This document shows positions 44,291 to 44,578 of a DNA stretch of 64,000 bases, one piece after another. Position 1 is the stretch's first letter. The number at the start of each line of letters is the position of its first letter. A model generated the notes under the pieces. The model saw nothing but the letters and a program-made list of their open reading frames with translations. It had not been told where the DNA came from and searched no databases. The stretch lies in the NCBI RefSeq assembly GCF_000027125.1, contig NC_017626.1; one strand, given 5' to 3'. The translations under genes and the position numbers were made by a program. The DNA is from Escherichia coli 042 (GTDB lineage: Bacteria > Pseudomonadota > Gammaproteobacteria > Enterobacterales > Enterobacteriaceae).

Positions 44291-44578
44291 ATGCGCGCGA
44301 TCGGTAAATTGCCTAAAAGCGTGTTGATACTGGAATTTATCGGAATGATGTTGCTGGCGGTGGCGCTGCTGTCGGTAAGCGGCTCCCTGTCGCTGCCTGA
44401 GCCATTTTCTCGGCCAGAAGTGCAGATTCTGATGATTTTTCTCGGTGTTTTGCTCATGCTTCCCGCTGCGGTGGTGGTTATTCTTCAGGTGGCAAAACGT
44501 CTTGCCCCACAGCTGATGAACCGTCCACCGCAATATTCACGTTCAGAAAGAGAAAAAGATAATGACGCCAACCATTGA
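44291..44578 (+). CDS. ybjC: DUF1418-family small membrane protein YbjC (95 aa)
   Basis: K-12 ybjC-nfsA operon position; 3' end overlaps the nfsA start by 17 nt. Confidence 0.85.
   Translation: MRAIGKLPKSVLILEFIGMMLLAVALLSVSGSLSLPEPFSRPEVQILMIFLGVLLMLPAAVVVILQVAKRLAPQLMNRPPQYSRSEREKDNDANH

Follow-up and report, generated by a model that had tools for sequence, protein, structure and literature searches.

[quoted passage not shown] According to a 2025 review, no specific sequence near the stop or the start is needed for coupling, which is most efficient at spacings of −4 to +3 nt and drops faster with overlap than with spacing; in one reporter series it was absent at −25 nt, and the only enriched natural spacings are −4, −1 and −8 (PMC12548453). 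The same review reports coupling without a Shine-Dalgarno sequence and without a masking structure, and for the coat-lysis pair of phage fr it documents back-scanning over −38 nt (PMC12548453). When five overlapping E. coli pairs were tested, four proved to be coupled; the exception, bioBF, has a weak Shine-Dalgarno sequence, yet initiates de novo (PMC6728339).

The ybjC-nfsA pair of Escherichia coli shares all the features named for coupled pairs in the first sentence, its genes being co-directional and overlapping, but its spacing of −17 nt is outside the −4 to +3 optimum and is not an enriched motif, and in E. coli the Shine-Dalgarno sequence of nfsA is very weak. As in the coat-lysis pairs of phages fr and MS2 (−38 and −50 nt, respectively), the downstream start is located upstream of the preceding stop and any reinitiation would require backward movement (PMC12548453); in the phages, however, structure or a lack of independent initiation otherwise keeps the lysis start closed, whereas the corresponding region of ybjC-nfsA is open and unstructured. 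The overlap belongs to an E. coli stress operon that has been studied well, and annotations already include this junction; as such it is ordinary and already known, and the comparative results presented here refine a known feature. Taken as a whole, the locus is in our judgement probably best explained as a known operon with an embedded, selected initiation region for nfsA, on which ribosomes would mainly load directly.

In the window, i.e. the whole stretch of 64,000 nt that was analysed, ybjC occupies positions 44291-44578 of the plus strand (ATG to TGA) and encodes a small protein of 95 amino acids with hydrophobic segments, of which residues 1-92 match the Pfam family DUF1418 (PF07214, E=7.5e-42). 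The nfsA gene, at 44562-45284 of the same strand (ATG to TAA), encodes the oxygen-insensitive NADPH nitroreductase A of 240 amino acids (Pfam Nitroreductase, PF00881, E=8.4e-19). Full-length similarity to E. coli NfsA and Vibrio FRP fits the NfsA group (group A) of oxygen-insensitive nitroreductases: PDB entry 1F5V aligns to residues 1-240 with three substitutions (E=2.4e-160), entry 1BKJ matches with E=1.2e-76, and in the alignments the N-terminus carries the group A motif x-x-T-I-E...HRSIR. The two coding sequences share the 17 nt ATGACGCCAACCATTGA (44562-44578, plus strand), which code for residues 1-6 of NfsA, M-T-P-T-I-E, and for (N)-D-A-N-H-stop of YbjC. The frame of nfsA is +1 relative to that of ybjC, (44562-44291) mod 3 being 1. 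The sequence, the list of open reading frames and RefSeq all confirm the observation of the first-pass annotation that the nfsA ATG lies 17 nt inside the 3' end of ybjC in a different frame.

The chance that this overlap is an annotation artefact, arising from a wrong nfsA start or from a ybjC that is no real gene, is practically negligible. YbjC is small and of unknown function, and short open reading frames beside real genes are frequently over-called. The nfsA start is nevertheless not in doubt, since 44562 is the first start codon of the open reading frame; two stops in the same frame are located about 15 codons upstream, and the chain sequences deposited for NfsA structures start with MTPTIEL. 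The body of ybjC combines conserved amino acids with free variation at synonymous sites (mean difference 0.51), indicating a real gene; YbjC is also a Pfam family conserved across Enterobacterales, and ybjC is retained even in genomes without nfsA. The artefact was rejected on the start codon, the structure chains, the Pfam family and this persistence of ybjC.

The closest described locus, the ybjC-nfsA-rimK-ybjN cluster of E. coli K-12, has the same genes, order and 17-nt overlap, with grxA divergent upstream in both strains. RefSeq places ybjC (b0850) of K-12 MG1655 (NC_000913.3) at 890913-891200 and nfsA (b0851) at 891184-891906. The strain of the window is not K-12, but otherwise nothing of substance differs; its YbjC and the form common in E. 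coli share 97% identity, with G31 and R78 in the former where the latter has Asp and His. The cluster order is grxA on the minus strand, followed by ybjC, nfsA, rimK and ybjN on the plus strand. The third gene of the same-strand cluster, rimK (45345-46247, plus strand, GTG start; Pfam RimK and Rimk_N, RefSeq), is separated from nfsA by 60 nt, in which the consensus scan found no terminator-like site. The fourth, ybjN (46335-46811, plus strand; Pfam YbjN), is given with its RefSeq start (offset +41599). The longest ybjN open reading frame begins with TTG at 46287, and the RefSeq start, ATG at 46335, has a reasonable Shine-Dalgarno sequence (−6.5 kcal/mol). Of 5426 complete E. coli genomes, 5419 contained the sequence of a 1.3-kb query at 95-100% identity, and in 4846 of 5386 E. 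coli records the 81 nt around the junction showed 99% identity or more. RefSeq annotates the overlap in about 5,400 complete E. coli genomes; in strain ECA64, identical to the window over the 1.3-kb query, the same 17 nt are annotated.

The literature describes ybjC-nfsA as one operon with a promoter upstream of ybjC that is activated by SoxS, MarA and Rob. In particular, nfsA has been placed in an operon under the ybjC promoter (PMC6375286) and is acted on by MarA, SoxS and OxyR (PMC10953011). As summarised in PMC11936445, Paterson et al. (2002) mapped the start site and the SoxS site, and coordinate control of the two genes by SoxS is exerted at a class I ybjC-nfsA promoter. The S3 Table of PMC5230787 gives, from RegulonDB, a 22-nt 5' untranslated region for ybjC (b0850), which places the transcription start of the operon at 44269 on the plus strand (44291 minus 22). 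With this leader, the candidate −10 hexamer of the ybjC promoter would be TAGACT (44258-44263, plus strand), which ends 6 nt upstream of the implied start. In the alignment of the intergenic region between grxA and ybjC, the hexamer is part of a block with partial conservation. In a ybjC::kan insertion mutant the MIC of nitrofurantoin rose 2.25-fold, an effect that the authors explain by lower expression of nfsA (PMC2680486). One promoter, located upstream of ybjC and activated by SoxS, MarA and Rob, would transcribe both genes, leaving nfsA without a transcript that lacks ybjC. That the pair is a known co-transcribed operon is almost certain. The coupled expression that the first-pass annotation had proposed therefore holds at the level of transcription, where co-control from the ybjC promoter is documented (PMC6375286 and, in summary form, PMC11936445) and the MIC effect of the ybjC insertion has been attributed to lower nfsA expression (PMC2680486).

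It is very improbable that nfsA has a promoter of its own inside ybjC, by which the two genes would be expressed independently despite their overlap. The promoter-like sequence TTCACG-16-GATAAT at 44536-44563 would fit such an arrangement, but its −10 element covers the nfsA ATG; transcription would begin inside the coding sequence, and the transcript could not encode full-length NfsA. In addition, the consensus scan of the region gave fewer promoter-like matches than expected from shuffled sequences (3 versus 4.3), and both the papers that place control at the ybjC promoter (PMC6375286; PMC11936445, in its summary) and the raised MIC of the ybjC insertion mutant, attributed to reduced nfsA expression (PMC2680486), argue against it. 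We regard the match at 44536-44563 as a chance match, as we do a terminator-like site at 44463-44477 inside ybjC, the same scan giving 4 terminator-like matches versus 3.7 expected from shuffles. No independent promoter and terminator were found between the genes, which leave no intergenic space and where matches are at shuffle level.

The divergent intergenic region between grxA and ybjC (44132-44290) contains two blocks strongly conserved across genera, TGAAAAGCAGGTT..CCTGTTGC and GCTATAnCTGTTAAACAC. The blocks probably hold regulator sites for the divergent grxA and ybjC promoters. A marbox consensus search of the window gave 18 matches versus 17.75 expected, none of them upstream of ybjC at two or fewer mismatches; by eye, two candidates with three mismatches can be placed at about 44204-44223 and 44220-44239, the second of them in a conserved block.

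A pattern scan of one genome per species recovered 30 YbjC loci, from Escherichia, Citrobacter, Salmonella and Atlantibacter; it missed Klebsiella and Enterobacter, and the taxon sampling is to that extent incomplete. In every one of these 30 loci having the junction, the ybjC stop is located 17 nt inside nfsA. DUF1418 is a small family, with 89 representatives at 50% identity in a profile search of 1.84 billion representative proteins, and the contigs of its distant members revealed the 17-nt overlap with nfsA again in Mangrovibacter, in Duffyella gerundensis and in two further lineages. Loci with this type of junction thus number 34, from Enterobacteriaceae and Erwiniaceae, and all have 17 nt; over the sequences compared, the overlap is ancient and invariant.

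The length of the overlap can be understood from the sequence of NfsA. The last six ybjC codons, AAT GAC GCC AAC CAT TGA, are built wholly from nfsA codons 1-6, ATG ACG CCA ACC ATT GAA, and the stop consists of the T of NfsA Ile5 and the GA of Glu6 or Asp6 (ATT GAx); in two Citrobacter loci the AA of Asn6 gives TAA instead. NfsA-family structures from Vibrio and Bacillus also retain T-I-E/Q at positions 4-6, making this sequence a property of NfsA and not of YbjC. Read in this way, the ybjC frame would run on until it meets its first stop, the TGA provided by the conserved Ile5-Glu/Asp6 codons of NfsA, and the last five residues of YbjC arise, on the evidence of these alignments, incidentally from the sequence that encodes the NfsA N-terminus. 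A change of ATT to ATC at Ile5 would abolish the TGA and extend ybjC by 13 codons, giving an overlap of 56 nt. Distant YbjC members frequently end in D-A-[DN]-H, and since the tail mirrors the NfsA N-terminus, they share this ending only where nfsA follows. A read-on of five codons into a following gene is unremarkable by chance; its conservation is remarkable.

In Pantoea septica, where both genes are present in the same neighbourhood as in E. coli, ybjC ends at the nfsA ATG in a TAATG junction with a 1-nt overlap. YbjC there has no D-A-N-H tail, Ile5 of NfsA is encoded by ATC, and nfsA is preceded by the Shine-Dalgarno sequence GGAG at −6.6 kcal/mol; neither the five-residue tail nor the 17-nt overlap is therefore essential. 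In three lineages, Yersinia aldovae, Serratia microhaemolytica and one more, ybjC is found without nfsA and the end of YbjC differs. In these genomes (loci L039/L040 of Y. aldovae, L041, and L042 of S. microhaemolytica), ybjC is located beside grxA and is followed by rimK-ybjN or by ybjN alone. The persistence of ybjC without nfsA implies a role of YbjC independent of NfsA, with nfsA a variable member of the cluster.

Codons 3, 4 and 5 of nfsA show synonymous differences of only 0.19, 0.07 and 0.00 among 29 non-redundant sequences, against a background of 0.53 (mean of 116 comparable nfsA codons); a random set of four codons is equally low in about 5 of 100,000 draws (P about 5e-5). Ile5 is encoded by ATT in all 29 sequences, while ATT accounts for 65% of Ile codons elsewhere in nfsA. 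On the other side of the AUG, most of the last 12 ybjC codons have synonymous differences of about 0 to 0.1, compared to 0.51 in the gene body, and Arg87 is encoded by the rare AGA in 22 of 22 loci, although AGA makes up just one of the 403 Arg codons of nfsA. The low synonymous change on both sides of the AUG indicates that a block at about 44540-44578 is constrained as RNA. This block of ~40 nt corresponds to roughly one ribosome footprint around the nfsA AUG. We consider it very likely, from these comparisons, that the region where ribosomes load for nfsA is embedded in the final ~12 ybjC codons and that selection acts on its nucleotide sequence. The putative translation-initiation region, 44540-44561 on the plus strand, is located inside the last ybjC codons and includes the purine tract AGAGAAAAA (44549-44557, plus strand), which codes for Arg87, Glu88 and Lys89 of YbjC. 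As coupling needs no specific sequence, the conserved sequence found here points to a sequence-specific role, for example in direct initiation. Against an initiation role, it could be argued that the conserved purine tract serves the charged tail of YbjC or a regulator binding site instead.

SdsN, a small RNA, acts as a repressor of nfsA as well as of ybjC, the operon gene upstream of it (PMC10953011); reports further describe repression of nfsA by SdsN137 and name the gene as a target of FnrS (PMC8139620, PMC10953011, PMC7004380). It is conceivable, though improbable, that a slightly longer form of the tract, AAGAGAAAAAGA (44548-44559), owes its conservation mainly to the binding of Hfq or a small RNA and not to ribosome loading, in which case SdsN137 or FnrS could repress nfsA separately from ybjC. 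The distal face of Hfq prefers (ARN)n motifs, and we take AAGAGAAAAAGA to be readable as four such A-R-N triplets. The reported regulation by both small RNAs and the conservation of the tract at synonymous sites, including the rare AGA codon, fit this alternative, but the A-R-N register is poorly kept in Citrobacter and the tract also encodes the conserved Arg-Glu-Lys of YbjC. Moreover, the predicted pairing of SdsN137 with the overlap is only about the operon-wide average (−12.8 versus a mean of −12.6, standard deviation 2.9, 844 windows in the 24-nt version of the scan). The best predicted pairing in nfsA is elsewhere, at about 44598-44627 (codons ~13-22, dG −22.6 in this crude scan with the K-12 SdsN137 sequence), and contains a perfect 10-nt match, CGCCAUUUCA (44603-44612); a rimK site near 45834 scores slightly better (−24.0). 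The stretch ATTCGCCATTTCAC at the 44598-44627 site is nearly invariant in DNA across genera. A duplex prediction for SdsN137 and the mRNA in 60-nt windows was discarded, having returned unrealistically long duplexes.

Returning to a tract that would serve ribosome loading, the anti-Shine-Dalgarno pairing of nfsA amounts to only −2.9 kcal/mol in E. coli, Citrobacter and Salmonella, with random 22-mers averaging −2.6, compared to −6.3 to −10.3 kcal/mol for ybjC, rimK, ybjN, grxA and ybjM. For ybjC itself the Shine-Dalgarno sequence is GAGGGA, with a dG of −6.3 kcal/mol. In Atlantibacter, Mangrovibacter, Duffyella, Pantoea and others, nfsA does have Shine-Dalgarno motifs, at −5.3 to −7.4 kcal/mol. 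The 20 nt before the nfsA ATG are 60% A, a level reached by 0.37% of the 20-mers of the window. The junction RNA has a minimum free energy of −16.2 versus a mean of −21.8 for shuffled sequences (z=+1.93), folding worse than 195 of 200 shuffles, and a consensus fold of 14 sequences, in which conserved RNA structure at the junction was sought, contains 0 pairs. The region being unstructured, with no inhibitory structure over the nfsA ribosome-binding site, coupling by RNA unfolding is not supported.

These properties suggest that in E. coli NfsA would be made mainly by ribosomes loading directly on this open, A-rich and Shine-Dalgarno-poor region. A secondary contribution would probably come from ribosomes that complete ybjC translation 14 nt downstream of the AUG and then slide back to it. 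On balance, we lean towards direct loading as the main route, with coupling not obligatory. A Shine-Dalgarno sequence at random level speaks against it, since a gene dependent on translation of its upstream neighbour would be expected to look like this. The overlap by itself is no proof of translational coupling, and the spacing is unfavourable; coupling is plausible all the same, since the ybjC stop, 14 nt downstream of the nfsA AUG, would allow termination-reinitiation. A search of the available literature returned no translational-fusion, ribosome-profiling or start-site data for nfsA.

Obligatory coupling would mean that NfsA is produced mainly by ribosomes that end ybjC translation at the UGA at 44576-44578 and move back about 11-14 nt to the AUG, by termination-reinitiation or by ribosome scanning, so that the 17-nt overlap would fix the YbjC:NfsA ratio. 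The nfsA AUG is still covered by a ribosome terminating at the ybjC stop, the length of the overlap is invariant across two families, and the ATT codon of Ile5, found in 29 of 29 sequences, keeps this stop in place. The contrast between the good Shine-Dalgarno sequence of ybjC (−6.3 kcal/mol) and that of nfsA, at random level (−2.9 kcal/mol), would also be expected. Precedents without a Shine-Dalgarno sequence or structure, the back-scanning over −38 nt in phage fr (PMC12548453) and the four coupled pairs among five overlapping ones tested in E. coli (PMC6728339) are in line with such a mechanism. Against it, coupling in reporters falls steeply beyond −4 nt and, in one series, is gone at −25, and −17 is not among the enriched spacings (PMC12548453). 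The region is open and A-rich, leaving direct loading unblocked, lineages with the same overlap have strong Shine-Dalgarno sequences, and bioBF is initiated de novo with a weak one (PMC6728339). We consider obligatory coupling doubtful. With the same reserve, the pairing energies allow the tentative reading that nfsA is effectively without a Shine-Dalgarno sequence in E. coli and its close relatives, and that NfsA may come chiefly from ybjC-finishing ribosomes sliding back. Were this true, the pair would provide a natural example, conserved since ancient times, of efficient coupling at −17, a spacing at which synthetic reporters couple poorly, and the back-sliding would explain both the invariant stop-forming ATT codon and the length of the overlap. 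In the S3 Table of PMC5230787, ybjC appears among 137 transcripts with kasugamycin-resistant translation (KEV >2.0), a resistance that this source links partly to coupled or unusual initiation; nfsA has no entry in the available text of the table.

The distinction between direct loading and coupling has a practical side. Nitrofuran antibiotics owe their activation to NfsA, and resistance to nitrofurantoin begins with the loss of this enzyme, which makes the cellular amount of NfsA clinically relevant. If NfsA synthesis depends on ybjC translation, harmless-looking ybjC mutations (of the start codon, early stops or frameshifts) could lower NfsA and might contribute to resistance without touching nfsA. 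The pair would then also offer a useful natural system in which to examine coupling at a long overlap.

A different way of joining the two products, a +1 frameshift at AAA-G (44555-44558) fusing YbjC to NfsA, was considered and rejected: the frames fit, but no stimulatory element such as a rare or stop codon follows. The only YbjC-NfsA fusion protein in the databases, an in-frame product of 192 residues on an E. coli contig (P0121), consists of YbjC residues 1-92 followed by NfsA from about residue 31; such a structure implies a deletion of the junction and the NfsA N-terminus and not a frameshift.

In-frame length variants of YbjC are common in E. coli and map to 44365-44396 of the window. 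An 89-residue form, found in 720 contigs, has no LSVSGS, corresponding to 18 nt between direct repeats CTGTCG at 44369 and 44387, and an 86-residue form is without 27 nt between GCTGC at 44365 and 44392; from the position of these repeats, the variants look like the result of repeat-mediated slippage in the loop between two hydrophobic segments. The nfsA gene is disrupted in several reference assemblies (L002, 3272-3990; L027, about 3269-3990; L029, 3254-3860; L037, 2766-3359). The type strain of E. albertii and a strain of C. amalonaticus carry frameshifts, close to codons 211 and 66, respectively; C. koseri NCTC10786 has a stop at codon 26, and a lineage that is also without rimK has one at codon 198. 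Loss of nfsA gives nitrofuran resistance, and these disruptions may be either real losses of function or assembly errors. Elsewhere in the 64-kb window, the only Rfam match above the gathering score is the RybB small RNA gene (41354-41432, minus strand, 105 bits), located between rcdA and ybjL as in K-12.
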